42,036 nucleotides of DNA from Candidatus Micrarchaeaceae archaeon (GTDB lineage: Archaea; Micrarchaeota; Micrarchaeia; Micrarchaeales; CABMGC01), in assembly GCA_038878295.1 (NCBI GenBank), contig JAVZVY010000003.1:1-42036 (forward strand), read 5' to 3'. The position numbers and the translations under genes are program-made. The stretch's first letter is position 1, and each line of letters begins with the position of its first letter. Below, piece by piece: positions 10,633 to 29,475 of the stretch. The notes beneath the pieces were generated by a model. It was given only the letters and a program-made list of their open reading frames with translations, ran no database searches and was not told the origin of the DNA.

Positions 10633-10642
10633 ATATATAAGA

Positions 10643-11371
10643 TTGATAAGTAGATATACTGATGCTATGGGAATCGATGCTGTGCCAGAGTCTTTAGGCT
10701 TAATTCCTGATGGAAATAGAAGATGGGCAAGGGCTCACAAGATTTCGTTCCTTTCAGGGTATAGGTACGGCGTTAAAAAATTCGTCGACTTCAGCAACTG
10801 GTGCATAGATTATGGAATTAAAAACCTGAGTGTGTGGGCGCTCTCGACCGAGAATCTTAACAGGCCAAAACATGAGCTTAATGCGCTTTTCAACATATAC
10901 AGATCTGCAGCTACGGATAAAAAATTGATAGGGGATCTCCACAGCAATGAAACAAAATTCAGGATTATAGGAAATTATAGACTGCTACCTCGCGATTTGC
11001 TCGAACGCCTGAAAAAACTCGAGTATGAGACAGCCTCTTACAAGAAAAGGACGCTGAGCATGCTAATAGGTTATGGCGGCAAGGATGACATATTGCACGC
11101 GGTAAATGCGATTGCTGATAGAGTAAAAAAAGGTAGTTTAAAAAGGATCACGGGCAGCGTTTTCAGTTCGTACCTTTTCTCTGCCGGTATAGGCGACCTT
11201 GACTTCATCATAAGAACCTCAGGAGAGATGCGTCTTTCTGGTTTCATGCCATGGCAGTCCGGATATGCCGAGCTTTATTTCTCAAAAAAGCTTTGGCCTG
11301 ACTTCAGCAAGCGCGATCTAGGCATGGCGTTGGAAGAGTACAGCAGAAGGGAGAGGCGTTTCGGCAGATAG
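10643..11371 (+). CDS. uppS: polyprenyl diphosphate synthase (cis-prenyltransferase)
   Basis: IPDGNRRWA, STEN..R, YGG, IRTSGEMRLSGF, LWPDF and RRFGR. The true start may be ATG 10667. Confidence 0.93.
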   Translation: MISRYTDAMGIDAVPESLGLIPDGNRRWARAHKISFLSGYRYGVKKFVDFSNWCIDYGIKNLSVWALSTENLNRPKHELNALFNIYRSAATDKKLIGDLHSNETKFRIIGNYRLLPRDLLERLKKLEYETASYKKRTLSMLIGYGGKDDILHAVNAIADRVKKGSLKRITGSVFSSYLFSAGIGDLDFIIRTSGEMRLSGFMPWQSGYAELYFSKKLWPDFSKRDLGMALEEYSRRERRFGR

Positions 11372-11383
11372 ATCTGTGTTTTT

Positions 11384-13243: not shown

Positions 13244-13248
13244 GTGGA

Positions 13249-14166
13249 TTGTTGCTTGGCGCAATGTTGGTCATAGCAGCCAATTTGCTTGCCTTGGTTT
13301 CTATAGCCTACGCGTTCAGGGGTGCAAAAGAGCTAGCAAAGCTTGCTGCGGTTGCCCTGCTTGGGGCTGCGCTTTTCTATTTTGAAGCGATGCCGATCCT
13401 AGCGCTTATTCCAGGTATTTTGATATTTTGTGCACTGGTATGGGCCTTCGGTAAAAGGGGCTGGCTCCTTCTTGCTTTGCTTGCCATATCATACGTTATA
13501 GCATTCGGCAGCCTTGGACCCGCAGCTGTATCTTTGGCGATGTCTTTAGGAGTTTTCTCTGGCGCACTCTCTATGCGAGGCGCCAAAAAAAGAGGCAGCG
13601 ATTCTGTAGAAATAAGGCGCGACTTGTTCCAAATTGCTTCTGGGATAGCAATGACGGCACTCTTCGTTGCGATAGGTATTTTTTATGCTGAATGGGCGAC
13701 CATAGCAATTATTATCATTGGCTACATGCTCGTAAATTATTCAATCAATGGTGGTGGAAGCGCATTGCGTAAGTATATAAATTCATTGGAAAGGGAAGGG
13801 GTACAGTTAGGCAGAGGCGCGGTTTGGCTTTCTGCAGGCATGTTGCTAGCATTTGGCTTTCTGGCCAATTTTAATTACGTGATGCTTGCAATCTTTGCAA
13901 TATTTTTTGCGGATCCAATTGCCACAATCTTTGGAGTTATATCTAAAAGAAAAGTGCGGCTCCCATACAACAAGAACAAGACTGTAAACGGCATGGTTGC
14001 TTTTTTCATAACGCTTTCGATTCTTGGCTATTTGGTTGTCGGCAATTATGCCATTGTTGTCTCGCTTGTTTGCGCACTTGTTGAGAGCGCGCCTATAAGA
14101 ATCGACGACAATTTCAGCGTGCCAGTTGCGTTGATAATAATGATTAAGATTCTGGCACTGTATTGA
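13249..14166 (+). CDS. dolichol/phytol kinase-like membrane protein (CTP-dependent polyprenol kinase family)
   Basis: Hydrophobic protein with ADPIATIFG, NKTVNG and ESAP..DDNF motifs; follows uppS. Confidence 0.75.
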   Translation: MLLGAMLVIAANLLALVSIAYAFRGAKELAKLAAVALLGAALFYFEAMPILALIPGILIFCALVWAFGKRGWLLLALLAISYVIAFGSLGPAAVSLAMSLGVFSGALSMRGAKKRGSDSVEIRRDLFQIASGIAMTALFVAIGIFYAEWATIAIIIIGYMLVNYSINGGGSALRKYINSLEREGVQLGRGAVWLSAGMLLAFGFLANFNYVMLAIFAIFFADPIATIFGVISKRKVRLPYNKNKTVNGMVAFFITLSILGYLVVGNYAIVVSLVCALVESAPIRIDDNFSVPVALIIMIKILALY

Positions 14167-14168
14167 TT

Positions 14169-14669
14169 TTATACCCGCCTGCCTCTTCTTCCGCCGGGCC
14201 TTTTTGTCGTGTCTGTAGGTATCGGCGTCACATCGTCTATGCTGCCAATCTTGAAGCCGCTCCTTGCAAGAGCCCTCACAACAGCCTGAGCGCCGAAGCC
14301 TGGAGTCTTTGAGCCGTGTCCGCCTGGAGCTCTTATTTTTATGTTTATGTTTGTAATGCCACGTTCTATGGCTGTTGCGGCAAGTTTGTATGCGGCCTGC
14401 GTAGCGGCATATGGCGTGCCTTCTTCGTGGTCCGCGTCAACAACCATGCCGCCGCTGGCTGTTGCTATTGTCTCAGCACCAGAAAGATCGGTAAGCGTTA
14501 TTATCGTGTCGTTCTTTGAGGAATAGATGTGGACTACGCCCCATCTTATTCCCTTCGGCTTGTGGAGTTGCGCAGCCTCTGCTACCTTGCTTTCAAATGA
14601 AACTTCCTTCTTCTTCGTTTGCTCTTTCTTAGCTCCTTGCTCTGATTTCTTTGTCGATTTCTTCTCCAT
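14169..14669 (-). CDS. rps11: 30S ribosomal protein S11
   Basis: [32 protein letters not shown] and GGRRGRRV. Confidence 0.96.
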
Positions 14670-14670
14670 A

Positions 14671-15171
14671 TCAAGCACTCTGAGCGTTTTCCTGCATTAT
14701 ATTTATAGGCTTGTAGAAGCTTATAGCCGATTCCTCGTTTACCTTTACGAAATAGCTCGGCTGCGTAATGCGCCTGCCGTTTATCGCTATGAAGCCGTGC
14801 GCTATAAGCTGACGTGCCTGCTTCATGCTCTTAGCCATTCCTTTCCTAAACACTATTGATTGAAGCCTCCTTTCGAGAAGGGCTTCTATGTTTATTACGA
14901 GAAGGTCATCTATTGTTGCATCTGGCTTTATGACACCGTATCTGGAGAGCTTTGCTATGATGGCCTTGCCAACGTCTTCCCTTTCCTTTCCTGATAGCAC
15001 TTCCCTCGCTTTTCTTCTTACGTTTCTGAGGGTGCTTGCTGCAATCCAAAGCTCCCTGAGGTTTTTCAGGCCATAGTCATCCTTGAGTTTATGCTCCTCT
15101 GCGAGCCTTTCGGCGTCCCACATGAACCCTGGAGTTTCGTATTTCTTCCTAAGCCTTTTTGGAGATCCCAT
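14671..15171 (-). CDS. rps4: 30S ribosomal protein S4
   Basis: [18 protein letters not shown] and ARQLIAHG. Confidence 0.96.
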
Positions 15172-15175
15172 TCAA

Positions 15176-15718
15176 TCACTTTGTTCCTGGCTGCTTTTTC
15201 TTCTGCGCCTCAGTGGCGGCCTCTTGCGCTGCGGCCTTTGTGAGCGCAGCCTTCTTTGTGACGCCGATTGTGACTCCGGTTCTTCCGGTTGAGCGCGTAC
15301 GCTGTCCTCTTACCTTCTGGCCGTATTGATGTCTGTGACCGCGCCATGTCTGTATTCTTATGTCGTTGTCTACATCCTGCTTAACCCGCACGGTAAGGTC
15401 GCTGCTTAGCAGATGCAGATCATTGCCGCTTTCGAGGTCTTTTTGCCTGTTAAGAAGATATGCGGGTATGCCGTTTGCCTTCAGATTAGTGAGCATCTTT
15501 TCTACTTCGTTAATCTTTTCCTCGCTTATCTCACCTATGGCGGACTTTGTGCTTATCCCGAATTTCCTTTCGGCTGTAAGCGCTATCGCGTGAGCAAGAT
15601 TGTTTCCTATGCCTTTTATTTGGGTTAGCGCCTTTTCTATATTGTAACTGCTGTTGATATCTCTGCCGGCTATTCGCACTATGCCCGATTCGGATTTTTG
15701 CTTTGATTGTTCTGACAT
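15176..15718 (-). CDS. rps13: 30S ribosomal protein S13
   Basis: ALTQIKGIG and WRGHRHQYGQKVRGQRTRSTGR. Confidence 0.96.
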   Translation of the reverse strand: MSEQSKQKSESGIVRIAGRDINSSYNIEKALTQIKGIGNNLAHAIALTAERKFGISTKSAIGEISEEKINEVEKMLTNLKANGIPAYLLNRQKDLESGNDLHLLSSDLTVRVKQDVDNDIRIQTWRGHRHQYGQKVRGQRTRSTGRTGVTIGVTKKAALTKAAAQEAATEAQKKKQPGTK

Positions 15719-15728
15719 TGAAACACCA

Positions 15729-15841
15729 CGCCAGGGCTGGGATATTCAGCATTATGCTTTTGAACCCAGAAGGCTCAGAAGAGCCATACGCTGACAAGAC
15801 GTTCTCCAGGCGTACGCATTACCTGATTCTGCCACCCTGGC
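15729..15841 (-). tRNA. tRNA-Ser(GGA) with two introns (37/38, 11 nt; 59/60, 16 nt)
   Basis: Acceptor stem GCCAGGG/CCCTGGC, anticodon stem TACGC/GCGTA, long variable arm GGCTC/GAGCC and T-stem CTGGG/CCCAG. Insertions at 15793-15803 and 15743-15758. Confidence 0.9.
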
Positions 15842-15934
15842 ATCGGAGATAGATAACTTATGCTATAGAATATTTATATACCTTATTGTAAAGCTTTTGG
15901 CTTAAATGCTGATATAAAGTGACGTAAGAAACAG

Positions 15935-16821
15935 CTACAAAGGCTTTCCTATCAGGATTATGCCAAGCACGATAAGGCCCCGCCAACAAGTTCTATTGGA
16001 TAGTAACTACCTATTATTACGCTCCCAAAAAGAACCAAGACCGTGTCTGCGTATTCGAAGTTGTTTATAAAATTGCGCGTTATTACTGTCCTGCCTATTC
16101 CACGCGTCTTGGTGAGTTTCATTGCTCGTAGCTCGAATACTGAGGCAAAAGAGAAAGTGAAGCCGCCGAAGAGGCCAAGCCCGAAGTATGCATAGTTGAG
16201 GCTTGCACCGCCAATATAAAACGTGACAAACAACGCTATTGGCAGAAATATGACAGGTTGCAGAACGAGCTTGCTTCCTATACTGTACTTCTTAATTTTG
16301 TAGAATTGAGTATAATAGCCTGCACCTGCTATAATAGATATGCCGAATACGAATGGAAGTGTTCCGATCTGAAAGCTAAATCCCTTGCTTTCGGCAAAGA
16401 AAACGCCGATTACTACGAACAGCACGCCGATAGCAAGGAGAGCGACTTGACGCGGCCTAAGCGACTTTCTATAGCGTGCGAAGTCTATCAGGAAAAAGAC
16501 CAGAGACGAGAGCCCTATTAATGGATATATGCTCGCTAGGGTATATCTTGTGTAGCCGAATAGCAGCAGCATAGTATAGCTTACTATCATCACTGCAGAG
16601 AATGCACCAAGATAGTACCTTTTGGCGTCCTTAAGCCTGAATCTCAGCTTAAATGCGTAACCAGCTGCAATAATGCCCAATGTTATGCCGATAGCTATGG
16701 AAAGCATGGCAAGCCCGAGCTGCATGTTCTTTACTACGAGATAGTCTATGGTGCCATTTATCGCGTATAGCACTGTGCTTGCAATCATGAATGCGTATGT
16801 TTTTCTGAGCATATAGGGCAT
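15935..16821 (-). CDS. EamA/DMT-like membrane protein with an apparent 1-nt frameshift near its 3' end
   Basis: Multi-pass TM ORF 15958..16821. The shifted frame continues LIVLGIILIGKPL* and completes the typical EamA terminal helix. Confidence 0.65.
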
Positions 16822-16868
16822 CCGCTTGCAAGCGGGTCTTAGTGGTTTTTACAGCACGTATGCGTCGT

Positions 16869-18347
16869 CTATTTGCCCGCCTTTTCTGCATGCTTCTTTG
16901 CCTGCGCTTTTGGGATGGGTTTTACTGCAGGGAAAGCTATTACCTCTTTTATCGAATCGCTGCCTGTAAGTATCATTGCTATGCGGTCTATGCTCACGCC
17001 TATGCCTGCTGTAGGCGGCATACCATATTCTATGGCTTCAATGAAATCGTAATCGGAAGGTGGCGCTTCCTCGTCGCCTCTACGCCTTTCCTCTTCTTGT
17101 TCCTCAAATTTTTTCCTTTGTTCTATGGGATCTGTAAGCTCTGAATAGCAGTTAGCGACTTCTTTGCCCGCAATGTAAAGCTCGAACCTCTCGCTTAGGA
17201 GCCTGTTTCCTCGCTTGTCTTTAGTGAGCGGGCACATGTATGCTGGAAAATCAACAACAAATGTTGGCGCGAACAGCCCTGGCTGCACGTATTTGTCGAA
17301 GAGGGCATCGGCTACGTGGTAGGCATTCTTCGTCGGTATCTGCAGATTTTCCCTTGCAGCTATTTCAATGGCCTCTTTATCGGTAAGCGTTGAAACGTCT
17401 ATGCCGCTCATTTTTCTGAGCTCGTCGACCCAGTAGAGACGTTTGAAAGGAATGGCGAAGCTCAGTTCCTTTCCTTTGTATTCTATTTTTTCTGAACCGA
17501 ATATGCTCTTAACCATGCCATTGAGCATCTGTTCTGTGAGGGTCATGAAGTCATTGTAGTCTTTGTACGCTTCATAAAATTCCACTTGAGTAAATTCTGG
17601 ATTGTGTGTAGAGTCGATATCCTCGTTTCTGAAGTCCTTCGAAACCTCGTATACCTTTTCGAAGCCACCTATGATGAGCCTCTTCAGGTACAGCTCGTCG
17701 GCGACGCGCAGGTAAACATCTGTGTCTAGTGCATTATAATGGGTAACAAAGGGCTTTGCATTTGCGCCTCCGTATGTCGGTTGCAATACCGGCGTTTCAA
17801 ACTCGATGTAGCCGCGTGCATCGAGAAAATCTCTAACATGCTTTAGGATTTTGGCTCTTATTACAAATAGGTTTTTTGTTTCTGGATTGGCTATGAAGTC
17901 GAGGTGGCGTTTCCTGTATCTGACTTCCGTATCGGTAAGACCGTGAAATTTCTCTGGGAGCGTGAGAAGCGATTTTGAAAGAACCGTTATTTCCTGGGCG
18001 TCTATGCTTATCTCGCCGCGTTTGGTTTTTGTCACAATGCCGGTCACGCCTATTATGTCACCGTTGTCAATTAGCTCGATGATCTTCCTAGATTGCTCAT
18101 TAAGGAAATCTGATCTTGACATTATCTGTATCTTGCCGCTGCTGTCATAAAGGTCGAGGAACCTGACTCCGCCTATGTTGCGCATGCTGAGTATGCGGCC
18201 GGCAACGCTGGCCCTTTTGCCGTCGTATTCTGCGAACCTTTCCTTAATATCTGAGGAATGCGAGGTCTGATTGTATGCGTATGGATATGGATCTATGCCA
18301 AGCGCCTTAAGCGATTGCAGTTTTTTAAGCCTGAAGTCGTCAGCCAT
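16869..18347 (-). CDS. lysS: lysine--tRNA ligase, class II
   Basis: OB fold, YRKRHLD, FRNEDIDSTHNPEFT, ERFEL and YGMPPTAGIGVSIDR. Confidence 0.96.
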   Translation of the reverse strand: MADDFRLKKLQSLKALGIDPYPYAYNQTSHSSDIKERFAEYDGKRASVAGRILSMRNIGGVRFLDLYDSSGKIQIMSRSDFLNEQSRKIIELIDNGDIIGVTGIVTKTKRGEISIDAQEITVLSKSLLTLPEKFHGLTDTEVRYRKRHLDFIANPETKNLFVIRAKILKHVRDFLDARGYIEFETPVLQPTYGGANAKPFVTHYNALDTDVYLRVADELYLKRLIIGGFEKVYEVSKDFRNEDIDSTHNPEFTQVEFYEAYKDYNDFMTLTEQMLNGMVKSIFGSEKIEYKGKELSFAIPFKRLYWVDELRKMSGIDVSTLTDKEAIEIAARENLQIPTKNAYHVADALFDKYVQPGLFAPTFVVDFPAYMCPLTKDKRGNRLLSERFELYIAGKEVANCYSELTDPIEQRKKFEEQEEERRRGDEEAPPSDYDFIEAIEYGMPPTAGIGVSIDRIAMILTGSDSIKEVIAFPAVKPIPKAQAKKHAEKAGK

Positions 18348-18811
18348 CGTTACACCAGAGATATTAGCCAGCTCATGTTTTTAATGTTTGCTAGACCTAC
18401 ATTCCAGTAAACAATCAAGAAGAATCAACGGTTACTACCTAATTCTTCGGAGATTGCAGCAAGGTCGCATGACGTGCAACAGTTTTACATGTATAGCATA
18501 TATCAGTCTACACTAGATGTCCGAAAGTAAATAAGTTTAGCTGTATTTGCCCCAATTTATAATTACGGTTTTAGTGAACTACCCTGCCATTGCCTAGCGG
18601 ATAATGTGGGTGTGCAAACAACGTGGCCGTGTTGCTATCAGAACACTATTTCTATGATTCAGAAATTGACCACCGCTACCAGTCAGGATACTTTTAGGAT
18701 GGCGCTTCTCAATCTCAGATTCAGCGAATTTCTTAGCTCTCTGGTGTCGAGACTGGCAGATATCACAGAATTTAGCTTCTTTGAGACAATAGTTGCTTAT
18801 TTTGCACCGTG

Positions 18812-19591
18812 CTATTCTTTTATCTTGTTTTTACTCTTTTTTGTTTCTTCTTTTCTTAACGCTCCAGAAAGATACGCTTCTGCAACCGTATCCTGCAGCA
18901 ACCTGACATTTCCATTTCTGAGCCTTTCATAAGCCGTCGTAAGCCTCTTAAGTTCTTCATCACCAACCTCTGTTATTTTTCTGCTTTGGTTGCTTATGGT
19001 GTATATATCTATGGGTTCTGCCAAAAATGTCGGCGACAACCGCATAGTATCCTTTATGGCTTTTAGCACTACAAGTTTTCCTTCTTTCATAGTAAGGTCA
19101 ACATCCTCATACTCCTTAAGTGCGGCATATGCTAAATCATTTTCAGCCAACACAACGAATTTTTCTTCGGCGTGCCTGCCTCTTAGATAGTGGTCAGCAA
19201 CCCAGATGGCATTCTTGCCATTGCTATCTACGTAAGCCAATATTATCTCTATTGAAATGTCTTCTTTTACAGCGTCAATGCTCTGTATGCCGCTACTGCT
19301 TCTAAGTTCAACGTCTTTTTTAATTATGTCTGCAATGCCTGAAAGAAACTGTTCAAACATGCTTTCGCTTATTTCGGGTGCGTCTCCAAAGACATCATCT
19401 GCAAGCTTCTTGATCTTTTGATTTATCCATACGGTTCCGGCCAGAGCCAGAATATACTTATCTGCAGGGTAGATCTTCTTTAGATATACGGATACGTAAC
19501 TGGATGGATCAGCATCTGACCTTAGGCTCATGCCTGTATCGGAAGCCACAACTATTCCATCAACGCACTTCAGTGCTATGACCAATGACGT
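18812..19591 (-). CDS. proteasome-beta-like Ntn hydrolase (predicted Ser1; proposed ACG start)
   Basis: SLVIALKCVDGIVVASD aligns with the T1...D17 pattern, followed by KKI and ALAG. The ORF track starts at TTG 19585. Confidence 0.75.
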   Translation of the reverse strand, partial: TSLVIALKCVDGIVVASDTGMSLRSDADPSSYVSVYLKKIYPADKYILALAGTVWINQKIKKLADDVFGDAPEISESMFEQFLSGIADIIKKDVELRSSSGIQSIDAVKEDISIEIILAYVDSNGKNAIWVADHYLRGRHAEEKFVVLAENDLAYAALKEYEDVDLTMKEGKLVVLKAIKDTMRLSPTFLAEPIDIYTISNQSRKITEVGDEELKRLTTAYERLRNGNVRLLQDTVAEAYLSGALRKEETKKSKNKIKE

Positions 19592-19616
19592 ACAACCACT
19601 TGGATAAGTCTATACT

Positions 19617-20387
19617 TTATATTTTTGTCATCTTCTTTTCTGCGGCATCGGTGCTGCCTCTTAGATGCCGCAGCATGTCACTTATTAATTGCTGCTCCAT
19701 CCTGTTTATATCTTTATAAGTGCTCTCAAACTCTGCGATTTTGATGTCGTTAACCTTTTCTATGCCTTTGCTGCTCATCGTATAGATGCTTATCGGTTCG
19801 AGCAACTCAGATCCTGAAATAGACATCGTGTCTTTTATTACCTTATAAGCGATAAAGCTGCCTTCCTCGATTCCTAATTCTTCATTTTTATATTTCTCGA
19901 GCTGCAAGTTAGCCGCGCTTTCTCCTACGCCAATTCCGACGGCTCCTAATCTGTTTTCGCTATTAATTACTGTTGGAAGCATGTCGTTTGATATTATAAC
20001 CGCTGTCGCTCCATTTCTTTCATCGAAGCTTGCAAGTAAAAGTGTTGCATCAAGCTCTATTTTGGTAGCATCTTCTTCTGGGTCTTCGCCCCTCGCCATT
20101 CTGGCTCTTTTTATGTATCCCTCCTTGCGTTCAGCAAAATCTTCCAGAAATTTAGCTTTTATATCTTCAAATTTCTTGTTTTTGTTTAATTCTGTTTTGA
20201 GAAGCTCTCTAGCTTCCTCTATAAGGCTGTAGTCTCCAACACCAGAGAACAAGAATCTGCCATTTATAACCCTGATTTTCTCTCCACGTCGCAATATGGC
20301 TGTATTTTCCGTATACGCAGTATCAAATCCGCTATCTGCAGCTACTACAATTCCATCGTTGCATGGAATGTATATCAATAATGTTAT
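19617..20387 (-). CDS. proteasome-beta-like Ntn hydrolase (predicted Thr1; proposed ATA start)
   Basis: TLLIYIPCNDGIVVAAD (T1...D17), EKI, SGVG and GIGVG; paralogous to its neighbour (IKDTM...L.EPI.IYT.S). Confidence 0.78.
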   Translation of the reverse strand: MTLLIYIPCNDGIVVAADSGFDTAYTENTAILRRGEKIRVINGRFLFSGVGDYSLIEEARELLKTELNKNKKFEDIKAKFLEDFAERKEGYIKRARMARGEDPEEDATKIELDATLLLASFDERNGATAVIISNDMLPTVINSENRLGAVGIGVGESAANLQLEKYKNEELGIEEGSFIAYKVIKDTMSISGSELLEPISIYTMSSKGIEKVNDIKIAEFESTYKDINRMEQQLISDMLRHLRGSTDAAEKKMTKI

Positions 20388-20544
20388 TTTACCGCCTATT
20401 GTTTTTTGCTGAAAAATAAATATAAATATGTCGCACAAACACCAGTACTTTACAACAAATACACATATTTGCTAGAGAGAAAGTCAGAGCGCCAAACCGC
20501 GGTGAAGATAGGCATTTACCCGTGCTTTAACTTAAGTCAAACTG

Positions 20545-20619
20545 CGGGCCCGGTGGGATTTGAACCCACGACTTAAAGGTTAAAAGCCTTCCACTCTGGC
20601 CAAACTGAGTTACGGGCCC
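20545..20619 (-). tRNA. tRNA-Lys(TTT), intronless
   Basis: GGGCCCG/CGGGCCC acceptor stem, GAAGG-CTTTTAA-CCTTT anticodon arm and GTTCAAATC T-loop. Confidence 0.95.
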
Positions 20620-20698
20620 TTTGCATATTGATAATTAGTATTGTGTGAAATATTTATATCTGATTTGGTTTATACTGATTCTTGGTTTTAGTGAAAGC

Positions 20699-21238
20699 AT
20701 GAGCAAGCATAATGCACATGCGCACACGCATGGCTATTTTAGCGCGGAGCCAGACGAATCTACAAAGAATCTGCTGGCACAGAATCTTGAAAAAGGCGCC
20801 GTAATTGTAGATTATGGATGTGGAATTGGCAGATATTGCGGTGTGCTTAGTGAATATGCAAAGAGACTGTATTGTGTAGACGTTAATGAAGAAGCCCTAC
20901 AACTTGTAAAAGCAAGGTTTGAAGACGCAATCACAATAAGTAGTACTGAAAGCATAGAAGGCAATAGCGTTGACACAGTACTTCTTGCGAATTCTTTTCA
21001 TGATTTTGAAGATAAAGAATTCGCGGTATCGGAGATTTTGCGAATCTTAAAATATGGAGGCAAAGTGATAGTAATAGATTGGAAAAAGGCAGACTCTGAC
21101 AAAAGTGTAGCGCTGTTTGGCCCACCGATGCGAATTAGGATGAGCAAAGAGGACTATAAGAATTACTTCAAAAAATTTAGACTTATAAATGCGTTAGACA
21201 TCAACGAGACGCATTATGGACTAATCTTCAGCAAGTAG
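20699..21238 (+). CDS. class I SAM-dependent methyltransferase
   Basis: VDYGCGIG motif I, VDVN, NSFHD, RILK.GGK and IDW...GPP. Start at ATG 20699 (AGTG + 5 nt). Confidence 0.85.
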   Translation: MSKHNAHAHTHGYFSAEPDESTKNLLAQNLEKGAVIVDYGCGIGRYCGVLSEYAKRLYCVDVNEEALQLVKARFEDAITISSTESIEGNSVDTVLLANSFHDFEDKEFAVSEILRILKYGGKVIVIDWKKADSDKSVALFGPPMRIRMSKEDYKNYFKKFRLINALDINETHYGLIFSK

Positions 21239-21240
21239 TT

Positions 21241-21732
21241 TTATATTCCTAGATCCTTTCTGATTTTTGAGTTCTTGGCGAATACCAAGTATGTGATTAT
21301 TATGAAATCTATTATTATGGCACAGTGCATTATCGTGCAGTATATGCAGATTGCTTTAACCACGAATAGCTCTAGATAAATCAAATACGGCACAAGCAAG
21401 AGCCCAAAAAATCGCCATGCAAAAAGCGCGTTGAATGTTTTTCTCGCTATGCTGCTTCTCATGAAAACTACTGAGACAACCAGCAGGATGTTTATCACGA
21501 ACCACAATGCAGCGAGCATATCTAGAGACACGCCAAAGACTGTTGAATACGGGCTTTCGAGAACTTTCATGCAATTTATCTGAACGCCGCCCGAATGCGA
21601 GTTCCCAGGTATTGTGCAAAACGGCGGTGAAGTATGGAATACGTCAAGTTCTATTATTATAGTAGTTGCAGAAGCTATGCCGATTATAGACATTGCAATT
21701 AATATCAGAAAATCTTTGTAAGATGCTCGCAT
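21241..21732 (-). CDS. vitamin K epoxide reductase (VKOR) family protein
   Basis: Four TM segments, loop cysteines (FCT...NCMKVLESPYS) and a CIYC redox motif. Confidence 0.88.
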   Translation of the reverse strand: MRASYKDFLILIAMSIIGIASATTIIIELDVFHTSPPFCTIPGNSHSGGVQINCMKVLESPYSTVFGVSLDMLAALWFVINILLVVSVVFMRSSIARKTFNALFAWRFFGLLLVPYLIYLELFVVKAICIYCTIMHCAIIIDFIIITYLVFAKNSKIRKDLGI

Positions 21733-21788
21733 GCTTATCTATCTTATAAAACGTTTTTATAGCTGCTGGTTTGTTATGGTTTGTCAAA

Positions 21789-21875
21789 GGCCTTGGCCGG
21801 GATTTCCTAGCGAACTAGTCGGACCCGGTCTAGAGGGTCCACAGCCCTCCGTGCAGCCGTTACACCACCAAGGCC
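21789..21875 (-). tRNA. tRNA-His(GTG) with encoded G-1 and a T-loop intron of about 15 nt
   Basis: G-GCCTTGG/CCAAGGC-C acceptor stem, GAGGG-CTGTGGA-CCCTC anticodon arm and a CCGGG/CCCGG T-stem enclosing 22 nt. Confidence 0.87.
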
Positions 21876-21923
21876 ATGATACTATTATTAGTTGGATATC
21901 TTTATAATTATCTATGGGTCGCG

Positions 21924-22190
21924 TTACTTCGCGGTAATGTATGTTATGCCATCAGACACTAGAACTGCGCTTTCTTGGGGTGTCGCATTCATGTTGCTTA
22001 GCTCTGCTGCGCCGCTTAGAAGCTGGCCGTTTTGTGATGCCGAGATCACAGAAGCTACCTTTATGGCGGAAGCGCTTTGCAAGTATGCGGTTGCAATGCT
22101 GTTTGAATAAGCAAGCAGCTGTATCGAATAGCTTAACTCTACAAGCGAGACAATTATCGCAAATGAAATGAAAAGCCCATAGAATGCCAG
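21924..22190 (-). CDS. small pilin-like/membrane-anchored protein, last gene of the pilus operon (88 aa; proposed CTG start)
   Basis: Not in the ORF track. The open frame reads (M)AFYGLFISFAIIVSLVELSYSIQ...LVSDGITYITAK*, with GGTG + 5 nt before CTG; its C-terminus resembles LVTSDNITY of the 23823 gene. Confidence 0.72.
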   Translation of the reverse strand: MAFYGLFISFAIIVSLVELSYSIQLLAYSNSIATAYLQSASAIKVASVISASQNGQLLSGAAELSNMNATPQESAVLVSDGITYITAK

Positions 22191-22577
22191 TCAATCACCT
22201 ATAAAAATGCATATAGGGTAGCCATATCGATGCGAAATGATGCATGTGTGCGCAGTCGCGTTTTCGACGTATCCGAAGTGCTTGTCGTAAATGACAATTT
22301 CAATTCCGCGTGCTTTATATGCATTCTCATATGTGTATATGTAGTTTTGAAGGCATTGACTGCTGTTGAAATATGCTGAAACCACGCAGCTGGCGGCCGT
22401 CGAGTTATATTCGAGCTGATTGGAGATATCAAAGAGTGCCATGCTTGACTGCAGAGCATATTTAGAGAAATAAACATTTGAAATTTCAGAGCTTTCCGAA
22501 CGCGCAATCATCGACAACACCGCAGCTATGAAAAATATCGAAATCGCTGTTTCCAAAGTTGCAGTCTGCACTTTCAT
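22191..22577 (-). CDS. minor pilin-like protein
   Basis: MKVQTATLE followed by a hydrophobic helix (class III signal-like); lies in the pilus operon. Confidence 0.65.
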   Translation of the reverse strand: MKVQTATLETAISIFFIAAVLSMIARSESSEISNVYFSKYALQSSMALFDISNQLEYNSTAASCVVSAYFNSSQCLQNYIYTYENAYKARGIEIVIYDKHFGYVENATAHTCIISHRYGYPICIFIGD

Positions 22578-22582
22578 ATCTA

Positions 22583-23845
22583 TCACGCTATCGTAACTAT
22601 AGACCCCATATATGAGGTTGTCGAGTTTGCAGCCAGGCCTTGGATGTTTGCATTTATGTAGTATGAAAATGGCTCTATCGCATTGCAGGACATTTGGTAG
22701 CCAGAAAAACTGCAGCCGGTAAGGTTATATGGCTCGCTTTTAACCAGATTTGAATATGCCTCGGAATATGCAGATATAATCTGCTGTATCTGTGCCTGAG
22801 TCGACTGGGATACTCCAGAATTGTTGTAATAGCTTAGCGTACTGTATAGATTGTTCTTTGCTTGAGTGTACCACTCATAAGCAGACGCATTTGCAACCCA
22901 GGAATAATTACCTTTGCTAAGCACCTCAACGCTCGAGAAGGCCGAATTGCCGCTCACATTAAGTATTGTAGCATTGCCTACTGTAGACTTGCCTAAGAGC
23001 ACGTTGGAGGTTCGCGAGGCATTTGATAGGTTCGCCAAAAGGATATTATCAAAAGCGTATAGATAAAGAGTAAAACTGTATGCGTATTTCTCTTCGGAGA
23101 CGCCAGCAGTAGATAAATTAATCCCGGTCGGATACGGAGCGATGCAGAACGTGACTGTTTGCACGCTATCCCTTGTATAGCAATAATCGCTGAATATTCT
23201 GTAGTCCCATGCATTTGCCCCACATTGGATTGATGTTGGAAGCGGGTTGCCCCAGAAGTCAGTATATGTGCAGTGGCTCCACTCGCTCAAGGCGAACATA
23301 CTCATCTTGTCTTCGAACGGATAAATTATTCGCTCGCGCCTATTTGATATTCGCGCAGATATCTGGCTGTTTTGCGTGCTTTCTGTTGAAAATGTAGAAA
23401 GGCGCGCAGCGTTTGCTTCTGTGTAACTGCCGCAACTTACTGAATAGTTTATGCTCGCGGTATCGGTGCCGGGTTTAATTGGTTCAAATTCAGTGCTGAG
23501 CATTCCGATACCGTTAAAGGCATCGTAGAGATTGCTTGACGCGAATGCGAGTGAGTTTGAAGCCAGATGAAATTCTGCAGAACCGTTTGCACAGCCATAC
23601 ACCGCAACATAGAGTTGGCTCTGCTGATACAAAGTTGTATTCAATGGCATGTATAAAGTTACGTATACCCCAGTTGAGTGCATAGCTGGCACCGAAAAGT
23701 TCAGAGGACTGTTGCCTGAGAGAGCGCTGCCAAACAGTTTCTGCGCATAGTGCACCTTGTTCGAATATAAAGCTATTGCGCTTACGGCCAACGTCCCGAT
23801 TGCACCAAGTATCAGAAGGAACTCAAGACTCGTTTGAAGCTTCAT
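22583..23845 (-). CDS. large class III signal peptide protein (putative pilus adhesin/minor pilin)
   Basis: MKLQTSLEFLLILG N-terminus; extracellular-type body rich in S/N/Y with many N-x-S/T sequons and several Cys. Confidence 0.72.
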   Translation of the reverse strand: MKLQTSLEFLLILGAIGTLAVSAIALYSNKVHYAQKLFGSALSGNSPLNFSVPAMHSTGVYVTLYMPLNTTLYQQSQLYVAVYGCANGSAEFHLASNSLAFASSNLYDAFNGIGMLSTEFEPIKPGTDTASINYSVSCGSYTEANAARLSTFSTESTQNSQISARISNRRERIIYPFEDKMSMFALSEWSHCTYTDFWGNPLPTSIQCGANAWDYRIFSDYCYTRDSVQTVTFCIAPYPTGINLSTAGVSEEKYAYSFTLYLYAFDNILLANLSNASRTSNVLLGKSTVGNATILNVSGNSAFSSVEVLSKGNYSWVANASAYEWYTQAKNNLYSTLSYYNNSGVSQSTQAQIQQIISAYSEAYSNLVKSEPYNLTGCSFSGYQMSCNAIEPFSYYINANIQGLAANSTTSYMGSIVTIA

Positions 23846-24206
23846 AGTTTACCACCATAAGATAGGTGATATTGTCGCTCGTCACTAAGCGGCAGAGCGA
23901 ATATTGGCAGTAATATGTTGCATTCCTAAGCGTGTACCCCTTGAGCAAGGACACATTAAGATTGTAGACTCGAGACTCGCTAGATATGAAACTGGAAGCA
24001 GTTGAAAAATTCATCTGAGTGCTTTCAATGGCCGTTACGAACTCCTGCGAGAGATCGCTTACGTTTAGAAACTTCGTCTGATAGTACAGCGTTTCTGCAA
24101 TATTCCTCTGGAGGATGTAATATGTTTTGTATAGCATGAGGGCGGCGATGAGAATAAGCTGAAGCGCCATTAGCATGTCCAAAGATAGCAGTATTAGTCT
24201 CTTCAA
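23823..24206 (-). CDS. pilin-like membrane protein
   Basis: Likely TTG start giving MKRLILLSLDMLMALQLILIAALML; lies in the pilus operon. Confidence 0.6.
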   Translation of the reverse strand: MKRLILLSLDMLMALQLILIAALMLYKTYYILQRNIAETLYYQTKFLNVSDLSQEFVTAIESTQMNFSTASSFISSESRVYNLNVSLLKGYTLRNATYYCQYSLCRLVTSDNITYLMVVNYEASNES

Positions 24207-24210
24207 CAAA

Positions 24211-24411
24211 TCACACGCATTTAGACGCCGCTTGGTATGCGCCAATTATGTTTAACATGTTTGAGAGGCTTGATGAACACGAAGTTGAAGCTGGCTGGCT
24301 GTATCGCAAATCGCCTGCAAAAAGCGAAGATGCTGCACCTAAAAGGAAGGCAACAACCATAAGTGCTATGACCATGTAAATCAGCATCTCGAATGAAATC
24401 TGCGCGAGCAT
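24211..24411 (-). CDS. small type IV pilin-like protein
   Basis: MLAQISFEMLIYMVIAL class III signal. Confidence 0.68.
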   Translation of the reverse strand: MLAQISFEMLIYMVIALMVVAFLLGAASSLFAGDLRYSQPASTSCSSSLSNMLNIIGAYQAASKCV

Positions 24412-24413
24412 GA

Positions 24414-24794
24414 TCACGCCTTTGCCAACATAAATGAACCGTGATTATCGTAAATTGTTAGCGTGGTGTTGCCTGAGCTTGTACAGAGGGCCCCGCTATC
24501 TATTTTAAGCGGCGCGACAAGGCCAAATGTACCGTACGGTGCACTTAGAGACGACACCGTGATTGTAGAGTTGTTGCACAGTCCTTCTGGCAAAGCAATC
24601 TTCAGCGTCATTTCCGGCATGCCTGCTGTCATCGCATAGTTTATTCGGTATGCCATGTTTGATAGAAGATACGCGTTTACGTAAAAGTTTGCTTTTGCTT
24701 CTCCGCTCCCAAGAACGCTTACCGCAAAAGCCAGTGAAAGCCCAGCCACTGCCAGATAAAGCAAAAACTCAAACGAGAGCTGGGCTTTCTTCAT
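24414..24794 (-). CDS. type IV pilin-like protein
   Basis: MKKAQLSFEFLLYLAV class III signal. Confidence 0.8.
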   Translation of the reverse strand: MKKAQLSFEFLLYLAVAGLSLAFAVSVLGSGEAKANFYVNAYLLSNMAYRINYAMTAGMPEMTLKIALPEGLCNNSTITVSSLSAPYGTFGLVAPLKIDSGALCTSSGNTTLTIYDNHGSFMLAKA

Positions 24795-24796
24795 TG

Positions 24797-25027
24797 TTAC
24801 ACCGAATTTGAGGAAAGTGAGGAAAGCTCATGAGCTATGGCCTGCACCATGCTCATGTTGGTGTTGTTTATGTACATGTGCGTTACAACTGCGCCTTTTA
24901 GTCCGACTACCATAGCCAGGGCTATCACGATTACAATGCTAGCAGCTGCTAACATCATTATGTACTCAAGAGAGCCCTGGCCTTTCACTGTCCTCACCTT
25001 TCCGCGTTCTTTCTTTTCTCGTTTCAT
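24797..25027 (-). CDS. type IV pilin (class III signal peptide; candidate major pilin)
   Basis: Basic leader, then KGQGSLEYIMMLAAASIVIVIAL. ATG 25027 has GGTG + 5 nt. Confidence 0.82.
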   Translation of the reverse strand: MKREKKERGKVRTVKGQGSLEYIMMLAAASIVIVIALAMVVGLKGAVVTHMYINNTNMSMVQAIAHELSSLSSNSV

Positions 25028-25031
25028 CGAA

Positions 25032-25796
25032 TCACCATAAAAATCCTGGAAGAAAATGCATCGTCGCATAGAATATGGCGATTGCTATGTTGAGAGACGG
25101 CAAAAGTTTGTACAGCATCGCGCCGATCTGCGAGCCTAGAGCATCGATTGCGTGACTTATTGCGAGCATCATTGTTGTGTAAGCTATGACAATTATTGAA
25201 AATCTGCCCTCGGCGCTGGTGCCGCCAACAATTGCTGAAGAGCTGCTAAGTATGCTTGCGCTTATTCCGGCAAAAATAGGAAAGAAAATCATAATTCCAA
25301 GTCTTGACAGAGATTTCATGCTCTGCGTTTTTGAGATTAGAGCGTTTGCAGCGGCCTCGTTTTTGCTCAGGCGATCCTTAAATGCGTCAAGCAAGCCATC
25401 GATTTCCTGACCGCTTTCAAGTGACATTGCCACAATGCGCATGAAAGACTTCACGCTTTTGGATTCAGGACAATATGCCTCAACAGCGTCTGAAGGCTTC
25501 AGCCCAAGCTCGTATGATTTGCAGATAGAAGCTATGCTCCTTGAAAACGAGTAGCCACGTGCAGAGGTTTCCTTCAGAGCTGCGTATAGGGTGCCATTGC
25601 GCTTGTACGAGTTGATAAAATCGTAGATGAAGCTATGCGCTTCGGAGTCCTTGACCGCGGTTTGCCTGCGCCCTTCGCGATAGTATAGAAGTAGGCTTGG
25701 TATTGTCAAGGCCATGCCGATGTAAAATTTGATGGTGATAGCTGCGATTGAGAGCAGAAAAAGCACGGCAATCGCAAGCTTAGTTTTGTCACTCAA
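25032..25796 (-). CDS. type II secretion F/TadC-like pilus platform membrane protein
   Basis: TM-cytoplasmic domain-TM layout (IVAMSLESG); second membrane gene after the ATPase. Confidence 0.65.
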   Translation of the reverse strand: MSDKTKLAIAVLFLLSIAAITIKFYIGMALTIPSLLLYYREGRRQTAVKDSEAHSFIYDFINSYKRNGTLYAALKETSARGYSFSRSIASICKSYELGLKPSDAVEAYCPESKSVKSFMRIVAMSLESGQEIDGLLDAFKDRLSKNEAAANALISKTQSMKSLSRLGIMIFFPIFAGISASILSSSSAIVGGTSAEGRFSIIVIAYTTMMLAISHAIDALGSQIGAMLYKLLPSLNIAIAIFYATMHFLPGFLW

Positions 25797-26487
25797 ACAA
25801 TCGCCTGAATAAAGCGGCGTTTCCGAAAAAATAAAGCATAGGGATTACTTCCAGCATCGCAAGCGACAGAAACAGCAGATTGTTCCCACTGCTGTTCAGG
25901 ATTGACTCTGCTACAAAAATGAATATTACAAACGAGGGAAGAACAGAAGAGAGAAACATGTTGAACGTTGCATATCTCTGCAATGAGGCTTCCCTTATGG
26001 CATTTTTATGCTCGCTTTCGCTCGATTTTTCATCGAGATATTTTTTGATTGATGCATATATGTTTGTGCCCCTTGCGAGATTGAACCCGTTGAAAAGAGG
26101 ATTGCTCTTTGAAAACGTAACGCTGAGTGCAGATGCCGGATCGTCTCCGTAAGCTATTCTTAGCCTTGCTCGCTTTAGAGAGCCCGTAGTTTCAGCACAA
26201 GAAGACACTCTTGCCACTTTTTCTATGGTGGAAATGACGGATTTGCCCTTCTGCCTGTAGTAGCACAATGAGCCAAGCGCATCGATTCCCTCTTCGTATT
26301 CATTTTTTAAACGCGAGGCGGTGCGCAAATCCAAATAGCCTTTTGCGAAAAGAAGTGCAAGCGGCAACGATGCGAATGAAAATAATAGCGCGTATGTTAA
26401 GCTGTATGCACCGCTTGCAAACGAAAGCACAAGCCCTATGGTTGTGGCGAGCAACAAAGCGACAACAAATAAAGTGATTTTGTTCAT
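25789..26487 (-). CDS. type II secretion F/TadB-like pilus platform membrane protein
   Basis: Two N-terminal TMs, RIAYGDDPASAL and C-terminal TMs. The ATG overlaps the ATPase stop codon. Confidence 0.65.
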   Translation of the reverse strand: MNKITLFVVALLLATTIGLVLSFASGAYSLTYALLFSFASLPLALLFAKGYLDLRTASRLKNEYEEGIDALGSLCYYRQKGKSVISTIEKVARVSSCAETTGSLKRARLRIAYGDDPASALSVTFSKSNPLFNGFNLARGTNIYASIKKYLDEKSSESEHKNAIREASLQRYATFNMFLSSVLPSFVIFIFVAESILNSSGNNLLFLSLAMLEVIPMLYFFGNAALFRRLFE

Positions 26488-27998
26488 CTTACCAACTTGT
26501 ACGCGTTTATTCTGTTTATGATTTCGATTGTAGAATCGGTATCTTTGCATATTCTACTTAGGTAGGATTGCCTGGCTTTTAACTCGCGTAACGCCGAATT
26601 TTTTGAGATGCCATTGCGGGCAGAATACGCGCCGATTACTTTAGATTCTTTTATGGCTTCAGGATTTATGGCTCCGTTTCCGACAACTTTTGTTATTTCA
26701 ACCGCATTTGAATCGTCTATAACTTCGGCAGAAGCTTCGGCCTCGGCTCTGCTTAGCCATTTGTATTCGTACGCATCCGAAAGAATTCTCTTTGCAAGGC
26801 CTATCTGCGCCGTAAACACAGAAAGATCGAGCGCACTGAGGGCATTCGGATCTACAGACATCGGTTTTACTAGGAGCTTCTTAAGAAGTGCGAGACCATC
26901 TTCATTGCTGTGCATCGTAGTCATAAAAGGTATGCCAAGATTCGCGCCTGCAAAGAGCTCCTTGGTTTCTTCGGCGCGTATCTCACCTACAACAAGCCTC
27001 TCGGGACGCATCCTTAGCGCATTTATTACCTGTTCCTTTGTTGCCACAGCGCCATTGTACCTTGAGCCGTATAGGGATACAACATTTATCGCATTTGGAT
27101 AAAACCGTATCTCGTTTACGTCTTCTTCTACGGTGAGTATTCTATTGTACTTTGGCACAAACGACAAAAGCGCATTCAAAAGTGTGGTTTTTCCGCTCGC
27201 CGGTGCGCCGGCTACGACTATGTTGAGGCCGGCTTCGATGGCAAGCCAAAGATACGCGAGCACTTCTTCGGTTACTGTGCCATTCTTTACAAGCGTGGCT
27301 ATGTTGAGGTCCTTTTTTCCGCCTACTCGTATGGTTGCGGCTGCGCCACTGGTTACATATGGTCTAATCTGCGCGTGTAGCCTTGCTTCGTTGACTTGAG
27401 TGTCTATTATTGGAGTTTCGTCGTTCAGTTCCTTCTCGGTAGATATTATGAATCTATTTATCGTGTTTACAAATGAATATTCGTCCACAAAGTGCACGTT
27501 TGTCTGGCATCTGCCGTATCTTGCATGATAAATGCTTATAGGCGTTGTAGGCGCGTTGATCTCTATTTCTTCTATGTTTTGCTTGTCTTCAAGAAGCATG
27601 CTTATTGGGCCACTTCCGGCCGTGTCGTGAGCTATAAGTTGCGCTATGTAGAATGCTCTCTCTTGTGGCAGTTGCGTCATGAGTTCAAACTTTGCGATTT
27701 CTTCGATTTTATCGAAACTTGGTCCACTTTCATCGGCAGAAGATGCATGCTCTATCACATGCGCCTTTACGATGCAAGCTATATCTTCCTCGCGTCTTGA
27801 AAGTACGGCAGCCTCAGAATTGATGAGGTAATTGTACGCGTTGCCGATTTTTACTATAGACCTTGGTATTGGAAGGTTTATTTCCTCAACCTTTTCACCG
27901 CCAGACTGTTCGGACATTGCAAAACTTAGCCTGCTGACTATATGTGTGGTTCTGGCATTAGGTTTTTTTCTAAAAATCCGCGCTATTTCTTGTATCAT
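26484..27998 (-). CDS. type II/IV secretion (VirB11/TadA/CpaF-like) pilus assembly ATPase
   Basis: Walker A GAPASGKTT, Asp box TVEED..E, Walker B LRMRPERLVVGEIR and His box TTMH. Confidence 0.92.
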   Translation of the reverse strand: MIQEIARIFRKKPNARTTHIVSRLSFAMSEQSGGEKVEEINLPIPRSIVKIGNAYNYLINSEAAVLSRREEDIACIVKAHVIEHASSADESGPSFDKIEEIAKFELMTQLPQERAFYIAQLIAHDTAGSGPISMLLEDKQNIEEIEINAPTTPISIYHARYGRCQTNVHFVDEYSFVNTINRFIISTEKELNDETPIIDTQVNEARLHAQIRPYVTSGAAATIRVGGKKDLNIATLVKNGTVTEEVLAYLWLAIEAGLNIVVAGAPASGKTTLLNALLSFVPKYNRILTVEEDVNEIRFYPNAINVVSLYGSRYNGAVATKEQVINALRMRPERLVVGEIRAEETKELFAGANLGIPFMTTMHSNEDGLALLKKLLVKPMSVDPNALSALDLSVFTAQIGLAKRILSDAYEYKWLSRAEAEASAEVIDDSNAVEITKVVGNGAINPEAIKESKVIGAYSARNGISKNSALRELKARQSYLSRICKDTDSTIEIINRINAYKLVR

Positions 27999-28220
27999 AA
28001 TATCATTTTATATACCAAAGTAAATATTATTATATTATGATACAATCACATTTATATATCTTTCTAGAATTAGAGCTTGATATCTGGCTTTTTTGAGATT
28101 CGGCAACATCAACATTTAAATATTTTGGTTTACAATAGTAAACGGGTGCCATTTATTAGGGCATGTTCATAAGGCTTTGCACGGATTGCTGCTGGCCTAT
28201 AACGCTGCGGTGCCGATAAG

Positions 28221-28544
28221 ATGTCTATAAATAAGGCTGATGACGAGATATGGTTGCTTAGAAAAATAATAAGCAAGCCTAATTACGCGTTGCTAAGGCT
28301 TCTCATGGAGAAATCGCCTAGGAGCACAAAGGAGATATACATAATTCTTGGAAAGAAATTCACGAGGAAGACTTTGATAATATCGCTTAGGGATCTCTCA
28401 ATGAACTTCAATGCCATACAGCCAGCCCACATAAGGACTGAAAGGGGTTACGGCCTTGGTTACGCAATAAACCCAGCACTTAAGGGCATTATAAAGAATC
28501 TCGAGAAATTCGAAAAGAGCATAGAAGGAATGACGAAGCTATAG
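28221..28544 (+). CDS. small winged-HTH-like protein
   Basis: Basic 107-aa ORF (PRSTKEIY...RKTLIISLRDL...GYAIN), divergent from the pilus operon. Confidence 0.55.
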   Translation: MSINKADDEIWLLRKIISKPNYALLRLLMEKSPRSTKEIYIILGKKFTRKTLIISLRDLSMNFNAIQPAHIRTERGYGLGYAINPALKGIIKNLEKFEKSIEGMTKL

Positions 28545-28571
28545 CATTTTGCTCTCGTTGCATTGAAAAGG

Positions 28572-29471: not shown

Positions 29472-29475
29472 TGCA

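Follow-up and report, generated by a model that had tools for sequence, protein, structure and literature searches.

Where does translation begin in a gene whose product, a predicted proteasome-like hydrolase, is expected to use as its nucleophile a threonine that is immediately preceded by an ATA codon? This question is raised by gene A, which is located on the minus strand of a 42,036-nucleotide stretch of DNA from an uncultured Candidatus Micrarchaeaceae archaeon (GenBank assembly GCA_038878295.1, contig JAVZVY010000003.1, positions 1 to 42,036; hereafter, the window). The contig belongs, as C3, to a 752-kb genome (G000) that is 95% complete, and the named relatives of the gene A protein come from metagenome-assembled genomes of Micrarchaeota. 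Orthologous loci, the wider protein family and the start geometry of this genome jointly provide good support for ATA as the start directly before the catalytic Thr1, as proposed in the original prediction, which was made from the window alone; thus, gene A very probably initiates at ATA 20387-20385, and translation would start at AUA. The elements of the site, all on the minus strand, are as follows.

19617-20387, minus strand: coding sequence of gene A, Met plus 255 amino acids, with the stop codon TAA at 19619-19617; predicted propeptide-less proteasome-beta-like N-terminal nucleophile (Ntn) hydrolase
20385-20387, minus strand: ATA, proposed initiation codon of gene A, from the start-position codons of orthologues and the contig of run X1
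20382-20384, minus strand: ACA, Thr1, predicted N-terminal nucleophile; Thr is invariant in A orthologues
20391-20397, minus strand: Shine-Dalgarno (SD)-like AGGCGGT, with the core GGCG at 20396-20393 and the spacer GTAAA at 20392-20388, which gives 5 nucleotides (nt) to ATA
20417-20426, minus strand: TATA-like box TTTATATTTA, starting 39-40 nt before ATA; putative promoter element
20436-20438, minus strand: in-frame TTG, 17 codons upstream of ATA, which opens the listed open reading frame; rejected as the start
20376-20378, minus strand: in-frame TTG, codon 3 of the mature protein, used as the start by gene callers (P0001, MIYIP...); rejected
20544-20619, minus strand: tRNA-Lys(UUU) gene, on the same strand as gene A and 157 nt upstream of ATA

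Start codon of gene A and its orthologues

The originally claimed succession of GGCG, GTAAA, ATA, ACA, TTA and TTG is present at 20396-20376, where the minus strand reads ...CATATTTATATTTATTTTTCAGCAAAAAACAATAGGCGGTAAA ATA ACA TTA TTG ATA TAC ATT CCA..., and Asp is indeed residue 17 counted from the Thr that follows ATA (TLLIYIPCNDGIVVAAD), consistent with the assignment of this Thr to position 1. It could be argued that the true codon is ATG and that ATA results from an assembly or sequencing error, given that one A/G difference would suffice. However, a Logan contig of 1109 bases from run X1 (a hot-spring sample, possibly the window's own), with a word depth of 138, spans 19422-20530 with 3 differences, none of which is located at 20385-20387; the contig shows ATA at these positions, where ATG was to be looked for in the reads, and at this depth, ATA is not an assembly slip. 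No RNA run was among the sequencing runs listed as containing this sequence. Furthermore, ATA or ATT is found independently at the same position in three other genomes, and we consider the probability of such an error to be negligible.

The codon that precedes the invariant Thr is ATA in the window, ATT in locus L005, ATG in L006, and ATA in both L007 and L008, so that examination of start codons in orthologues, which the original prediction had suggested, yields ATT, ATG, ATA and ATA at the start position of the four other loci. In L006, ATG is the sole start codon between an upstream TGA and the Thr; L008 and L007, the latter 73% identical to L006, contain no in-frame ATG, GTG or TTG upstream of the Thr, and the nearest canonical codon downstream of it is 12 codons away in L007 and 5 codons away in L008. 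No canonical start able to give the conserved N-terminus is therefore available in L007 and L008, and the TTG codons of the window either precede the TATA-like box or follow Thr1. Amino acid conservation in gene A begins at the Thr and is accompanied by synonymous changes (ACA/ACG; TTA/TTG/CTT), and the residues that precede position -1 differ among the loci (K, Q, C, C and R). The Thr is invariant in all six A orthologues, and the conservation of Thr1 and Leu2 despite synonymous change indicates that both are translated. In the sixth orthologue, P0002, which is 57% identical and is annotated as starting with MRIT..., Ile is retained at position -1.

These comparisons bear directly on a start at TTG 20378-20376, which would yield a subunit beginning with MIYIP... 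that lacks Thr1, would be catalytically dead and might have a structural, alpha-like role. TTG is a canonical start that opens 366 of the 1231 long frames in this genome (when the first canonical codon is taken), and the public gene call P0001 uses this very codon, with P0003, P0004 and P0005 likewise truncated by gene callers. Nevertheless, there is no SD core at positions -9 to -6 of this TTG, the GGCG core being 14 nt away, and the codons aligned with it in the orthologues are GTT, GTA, GTA and GTA, so that a start at this position lacks conservation. If L007 were to use its first canonical codon downstream of the Thr, 12 residues including strand S1 would be lost, and in the window, the start at this TTG would drop the invariant Thr1 and Leu2, for which the synonymous changes indicate translation. 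We consider this start to be improbable.

A start at the other TTG, 20438-20436, would add an 18-residue propeptide that is autocatalytically removed before Thr1, as in canonical beta subunits. The frame is open from 20471, being closed upstream by an in-frame TAG at 20474-20472, and the canonical beta subunit encoded in the same genome has such a propeptide, with ...IMKG preceding TTTVG; read-through from the tRNA-Lys gene would be the only evident route to transcription of this TTG. The codon that opens the frame at 20438 had been described as ATG but reads TTG, whereas the TATA-like sequence reported at about 20417-20426 is present at 20426-20417, and the conserved box near -40 is consistent with the proposal that the upstream codon lies outside the transcript. 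This TTG is not only upstream of the box but also has GGTG 1 nt before it instead of 5 nt. The peptide upstream of the Thr varies in length and sequence among the loci; L007 and L008 lack a canonical upstream start; and in L006, ATG is directly before the Thr. The residue at position -1 is Ile in the window (Ile or Met in gene A generally) as opposed to Gly in processed beta subunits, and the upstream sequence is not conserved, so that the Gly(-1) signature of a propeptide is absent. Finally, propeptides are missing in the wider family, and altogether, a processed precursor appears highly unlikely.

The wider family was assessed using 148 distant homologues that were obtained in an exhaustive profile search, after the close relatives P0001-P0005 were dropped. 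A motif defined in this work, [TS]-x9-G-x5-[DE], was sought within the first 70 residues and was found in 118 of these proteins. In 109 of the 118, the Thr or Ser is residue 2, following M (103 proteins), L (3) or V (3), which implies that translation in this family starts at the codon directly preceding the nucleophile. Among the remaining 9 proteins, 7 have M, L or V just before the nucleophile, bringing the number with one of these residues at position -1 to 116 of the 118, and 2 contain Gly-Thr as in true beta subunits.

The start geometry of the genome also favors ATA. The 3' end of the 16S rRNA, located by short conserved motifs, is ...GATCACCTCA, which corresponds to the SD sequence GAGGTGATC. 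Among the 94 cases in which GGTG precedes the first canonical start by 4-8 nt, the spacing is exactly 5 nt in 67. The most common tetranucleotides at positions -9 to -6 of 686 long frames are GGTG (48), AGTG (27) and GGCG (18), compared to 1, 2 and 2 occurrences, respectively (together, 5 of the 686), at the control offset of -24 to -21. Gene A, with GGCG, and its downstream paralogue, gene B, with AGTG, thus carry the third and the second most common cores at the standard offset, and in the four orthologous A loci, the start-position codon is preceded by GGTG-type cores at a distance of 5-6 nt. Behind GGTG plus 5 nt near frame openings, ATG is found 76 times, TTG 19 times and GTG 13 times, against 1-10 times at control spacings. 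Each of the five A loci has a TATA-like hexamer starting between -42 and -38, and a genome-wide peak of TATA-like sequences is observed at -40 to -37 before SD-led canonical starts (20 of the 88 hits, in 138 genes). In a strict class of frames, defined by a core plus 5 nt, no canonical in-frame start upstream and at least 150 codons downstream, we identified 89 canonical starts and 10 near-cognate candidates, 5 of which have comparative support.

Several observations weigh against ATA as the start. The presence of two in-frame canonical TTG codons (20438 and 20378), unlike the situation in L007 and L008, means that the sequence of the window alone does not force ATA. The call for P0002, which is known from the protein only, has ATG three codons before the Thr; L005 contains GTG four codons before the Thr, overlapping its own SD; and the five DNA-verified loci, from two families, are non-independent kin. 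The gene A core, GGCG, is one mismatch away from GGTG. There is no bulk enrichment of ATA behind GGTG plus 5 nt near frame openings (7 occurrences versus 7-12 at control spacings), and in the strict class, the ratio of near-cognate to other codons, 10/51, compares with 19/115, 6/46 and 5/48 in the controls; from bulk statistics alone, near-cognate starts would go unseen. The reported efficiency of AUA initiation is 1-2% of that of AUG in E. coli and, behind extended SDs in S. aureus, about 10% and up to 30% (PMC13009471).

Product of gene A and the paralogous pair

Judging by sequence and fold comparisons, gene A is predicted to encode a divergent proteasome-beta-like Ntn hydrolase without a propeptide. 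Single-sequence searches of PDB and NCBIfam yielded only weak proteasome matches, whereas PF00227 of Pfam is matched narrowly above its cut-off of 22.4 bits by both gene A (27.5 bits, E 2.9e-6) and its paralogue B (28.4 bits), and neither passes the NCBIfam equivalog TIGR03634 (19.7 bits for A and 24.1 bits for B versus a cut-off of 224). With profile A4, archaeal beta subunits are the best matches in PDB (E 2.4e-21). An AF2 model of the A protein computed from a 45-row alignment has a predicted local distance difference test score (pLDDT) of 94.1 and a predicted template modeling (TM) score of 0.89; an earlier model from 6 sequences was poor (pLDDT 53.6) and was discarded. In a Foldseek comparison of the better model to PDB, all 49 matches listed are proteasome subunits (E down to 1.1e-12, TM 0.56-0.78). 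T1, D17, K36 and G50 are invariant in the alignment of the six A orthologues; across 45 family members, K36 and G50 likewise do not vary, and the conservation of D17 is at least 90%.

The genome of the window encodes its own canonical alpha and beta proteasome subunits, the beta gene starting with ATG behind GGTG-N5. Canonical PsmB is the best PDB profile match of the A protein and is among its best fold matches (TM 0.6-0.76), with the same catalytic residues, but the A protein is about 50 residues longer, lacks the Gly(-1) propeptide and, in the model, has an additional long helix at residues 72-97 as well as a C-terminal one (213-253). The survey by Fuchs, Alva and Lupas (2021; PMC8665760) describes 22 families of proteasome homologues, such as WPH, PHI and ACC, which, like Anbu and BPH, lack propeptides; propeptides are reported there in most beta and HslV subunits and in no other proteasome homologue, and the catalytic set comprises Thr1 or Ser1, Asp17, Lys33 and the oxyanion Gly47; start codons are not mentioned in its abstract or section 3. 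Like Anbu, BPH, WPH, PHI and ACC as portrayed there, the A protein is predicted to combine the proteasome-beta fold, Thr1/Ser1, Asp17 and an equivalent of Lys33 with the lack of a propeptide and a nucleophile directly after Met. Its C-terminal helix resembles in the model the coiled-coil helix H5 described for Anbu, WPH, ACC and some PHI, and coexistence of propeptide-less homologues with a canonical proteasome is reported as well. Unlike in these named families, Thr1-type and Ser1-type paralogues are always adjacent here. No Anbu, BPH or HslV chain is present among the 60 best profile matches listed or the 49 fold matches listed, which is a weak argument for separating gene A from those families.

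The Ser1-type paralogue is located directly downstream of gene A, 25 nt away in the window, and the two proteins are 26% identical.

18812-19591, minus strand: paralogue B, Ser1 type, intact; proposed ACG start at 19591-19589, with AGTG at 19600-19597 plus 5 nt

Residues S1, D17 and K38 are invariant in the B orthologues, and the codon before the invariant Ser in five orthologous loci is ATG, TTG, TTG, GTG and TTG. The corresponding ACG of the window, which is unique to its genome (1 of 6 loci), is covered without differences by contigs of runs X1, X2 and X3. The TTG chosen as the B start by the open reading frame caller, two codons downstream of ACG, aligns with TTA, TTA, CTG, ATT and CTG; this candidate start was rejected because it would delete the invariant Ser1. 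The original observation of two intact neighboring paralogues with different near-cognate codons, ATA and ACG, is thus borne out by the sequence.

Genes A and B are adjacent, in a constant order and 8-25 nt apart, in every genome that carries the pair (the window and loci L005-L009). In a maximum-likelihood tree, each of them forms a clade with 100/100 support, and together with one further protein they group (87/98) within a large family whose members are about 240-260 residues long. The pair is present in one of the 118 genomes of the window's own family (G000 itself) and in 5 of the 129 genomes of a neighboring family, four of the five belonging to one genus and one to another; it was not found in G001, a 94% complete genome of the same genus. 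In a class-wide sample, 7 of 401 genomes contain matches at E <= 1e-10, two of these being distant single homologues (the genome tallies include the unpublished genome G038, on which no claim depends), and a scan of metagenome contigs for relatives found none. No unfoldase or other conserved partner gene was detected beside the pair, the flanks of which consist of housekeeping genes that differ by locus. The part of the window from 8500 to 26500 falls between the ends of two G001 contigs, C19 (matching 546-8539) and C8 (matching 26566-41645), and may be a variable region or just unassembled in G001.

This patchy distribution, together with the GC content of the pair (0.40-0.41 compared to 0.45 for the window), is what would be expected if gene A were a decaying or silent relic that was switched off by an ATG-to-ATA mutation and the open frame of which is not yet eroded. 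The evolution of the gene speaks strongly for the opposite. Gene A is under purifying selection and is alive: in comparisons between lineages, pS is 0.60-0.90, that is, saturated, whereas pN is 0.14-0.41, and dN/dS, where dS could be estimated, is 0.13-0.23 (0.13 for L006-L007). Despite the saturation of synonymous sites, all five lineages retain intact frames, invariant catalytic residues and the SD and TATA geometry. Furthermore, most lineages have ATA/ATT, which is probably the ancestral state as well, and widely conserved genes elsewhere in this genome likewise start with ATA, ACG or CTG. The relic scenario is accordingly very improbable.

Near-cognate starts elsewhere in the genome

Several genes unrelated to the A-B pair appear to start at near-cognate codons. 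One of these encodes a PDO/glutaredoxin-like protein with two thioredoxin folds containing CQYC and CPWC, respectively (L024:1501-2151, which corresponds to G000:C11:6652-7302, plus strand). This gene contains AGGTGAGAGC-ATA, i.e., ATA behind AGGTGA plus 5 nt, and has no canonical start within the first 26 conserved residues. Across 26 orthologous loci, the start codon is ATG in 19 and TTG in 2, whereas ATA is present in G000, in its congener G001 and in a genome of a third genus (G014); the two remaining loci have ATG one codon away. The second case is an aldehyde/P5C-dehydrogenase-like gene (L050, corresponding to G000:C1:49678-51300, minus strand), in which TAA is directly followed by ACG AGG GGC ACT TTT, with GGTG plus 5 nt in front of ACG. 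The identical codon is ATG in G001, in each of the 29 relatives examined, ATG or GTG precedes the conserved FxNE motif by two to five codons, and in G000, FENEFTY precedes the first canonical codon. In addition, a PHP-domain gene (G000:C4:10747-12012, minus strand) has CTG where G001 has TTG, and in an AbrB-like gene (G000:C5:13682-14524, plus strand), TGA is directly followed by ATA behind AGGTG, and ATA is kept in G001 despite a frame-shifting upstream indel.

The other candidates from the strict scan have ATT (C10), ATA (C2 and C18), ATC (C21) and AAG (C1). A start-swap test produced 4 matches, among which the one in C24 was rejected as internal and the one in C7 as doubtful, and the one in C14 is ambiguous (ATC followed by GTG). 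When whole frames of G000 were compared to some 340 kb of G001, 188 of the 457 pairs were flagged as conserved upstream of the first canonical start, but the two genomes are so close that non-coding sequences and shadow frames align as well, which makes the flagged pairs useless as evidence.

The presence of two near-cognate starts side by side had been taken to suggest selection for low expression more than chance decay, and this part of the original prediction is only partly sustained. In its favor, ATA or ATT is found in four of the five lineages in spite of synonymous saturation, and this majority state of the gene A start is probably also the ancestral one, given that the ATG of L006 is nested among the ATA bearers in the tree. 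The near-cognate frequency at the start, 4 of 5 loci in gene A, compares with 3 of 26 in the PDO-like gene and 1 of 30 in the dehydrogenase-like gene. Conversely, the phenomenon is not specific to the pair, unrelated genes in the same genome starting with ATA, ACG or CTG, so that a lineage-wide habit explains much of it, and the ACG of gene B is limited to a single locus out of six. Near-cognate starts behind a rigidly spaced SD as a habit of this lineage thus provide a better-supported frame than selection for low expression. The retention of ATA/ATT in gene A is consistent with selection for low output but also with very weak selection for ATG, and selection for low expression of this gene is possible but not established.

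A broader scheme can be offered tentatively, and we regard it as possible but rather doubtful. Under this scheme, in Micrarchaeota, where the SD core is followed by exactly 5 nt and leaders are about 10 nt long, AUA, ACG, CUG and AUU might be regular starts in about 1 in 20 SD-led genes. The weak codons of A and B would then be selected as the sole translation dial that limits a potentially dangerous protease without a regulator to low amounts, perhaps in response to aIF1.

Proposed mechanism and related systems

The data show the sequence itself, the conserved geometry, the start position in orthologues and the architecture of the family. The route from promoter to enzyme that we infer, including the transcript start, AUA initiation, Met removal, enzyme activity and low expression, would be as follows. 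A promoter with the TATA box near -40 would give an mRNA leader of roughly 10 nt, in which AGGCGGT would pair with the 3' end of the 16S rRNA, and this pairing would set the codon 5 nt past the core into the P site, as in the ordinary genes of this genome. The standard initiator tRNA (CAU) would read AUA with a third-position mismatch and insert Met, with reduced efficiency. Given the AUA efficiencies measured elsewhere, the output of gene A should be low. The type II methionine aminopeptidase would then remove Met and expose Thr1 as the nucleophile, so that the mature A protein is expected to begin with TLLIYIPCNDGIVVAADSGFDTAYTENTAILR, with a free Thr. Paralogue B would start likewise at ACG, before Ser1. 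Because the nucleophile must be residue 2, the start cannot shift to a neighboring canonical codon without inactivation of the enzyme, and only the identity of the codon can vary.

The genome encodes the components required by this route, namely, an initiator-type tRNA with the anticodon CAU, aIF1, and a type II methionine aminopeptidase-like gene, a fragment of which matches TIGR00501 (E 1e-48). Removal of Met from Met-Thr by methionine aminopeptidase is established. Near-cognate initiation in E. coli yielded N-terminal Met, according to the Hecht preprint, and in archaea, aIF1 rejects non-AUG complexes, as stated in PMC6237735.

Altogether, 33 tRNAs were detected in the genome, an incomplete set in which the sole CAU tRNA is of the initiator type. 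We also considered a dedicated initiator tRNA with the anticodon UAU, but the initiator-like tRNA carries CAU, and UAU is found in an ordinary-looking tRNA-Ile (G000:C1:89653-89729, minus strand), so this possibility was rejected. In the presence of this tRNA-Ile, AUA may be decoded without an agmatidine-containing (CAU-derived) tRNA-Ile2.

Among bacteria, infC and pcnB of E. coli have AUU starts. In S. aureus, AUA starts are described for infC, ccpN and citZ, and an AUU start for cvfC1, in PMC13009471. As in these SD-directed bacterial starts, a weak AUH codon follows a good SD at a constant distance in gene A, and the arrangement is conserved among relatives; the bacterial AUA and AUU starts are described as being read by the initiator tRNA and as reducing output. 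The SD of gene A is at the preferred spacing of the organism, and a relative (L006) has ATG at the same codon, two features expected of SD-directed near-cognate starts. The differences are that the host is an archaeon, in which start selection involves aIF1, aIF1A and aIF2 instead of IF3, that the adjoining gene uses ACG, a poor start in bacteria, and that the start position in gene A is locked by the Thr at residue 2.

Near-cognate initiation in eukaryotes (ACG, CUG and AUA) is policed by eIF1, and aIF1 has the same fidelity role, according to PMC6237735. The genome analyzed here resembles the eukaryotic systems in the use of ACG and CUG alongside AUA and in the presence of aIF1, but differs from them in that the start is positioned by an SD at a fixed 5-nt spacing and not by scanning. 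In ribosome profiling of Haloferax, about 30% of the putative alternative initiation sites are near-cognate and were set aside, according to PMC7261190. A literature search found no paper on near-cognate starts in Micrarchaeota or DPANN, most subscription journals being outside its coverage.

Gene A offers an unusually clear-cut natural test case for non-AUG initiation in archaea: activity would require Thr at residue 2, so that chemistry, rather than a gene model, dictates the position of the start. The ATA of gene A and the ACG of gene B, combined with the ATA, ACG and CTG starts of unrelated genes, point to systematic use of near-cognate starts in this DPANN lineage, which, if true, would affect gene calling across the lineage. 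Because several genes start at non-standard codons, gene finders cut them short; in particular, the public calls that begin with MIYIP, MVVYVP, MYIAC and MMAADSG are truncated and lack the catalytic Thr, so that the family would be misread as inactive.

Two further observations pertain to other parts of the window. At 35366-35733 on the plus strand, an SRP RNA (78.9 bits with the bacterial large-SRP model) precedes, by 5 nt, a 101-nt tRNA match that is absent from the ARAGORN output and probably represents a tRNA with an intron. Immediately past the tRNA-Lys gene, the window encodes a VKOR-family membrane protein (21241-21732, minus strand) and a class I S-adenosylmethionine (SAM) methyltransferase (20645-21238, plus strand); the genes of the VKOR region, along with the PDO-like gene elsewhere in the genome, hint at a disulfide-bond system.

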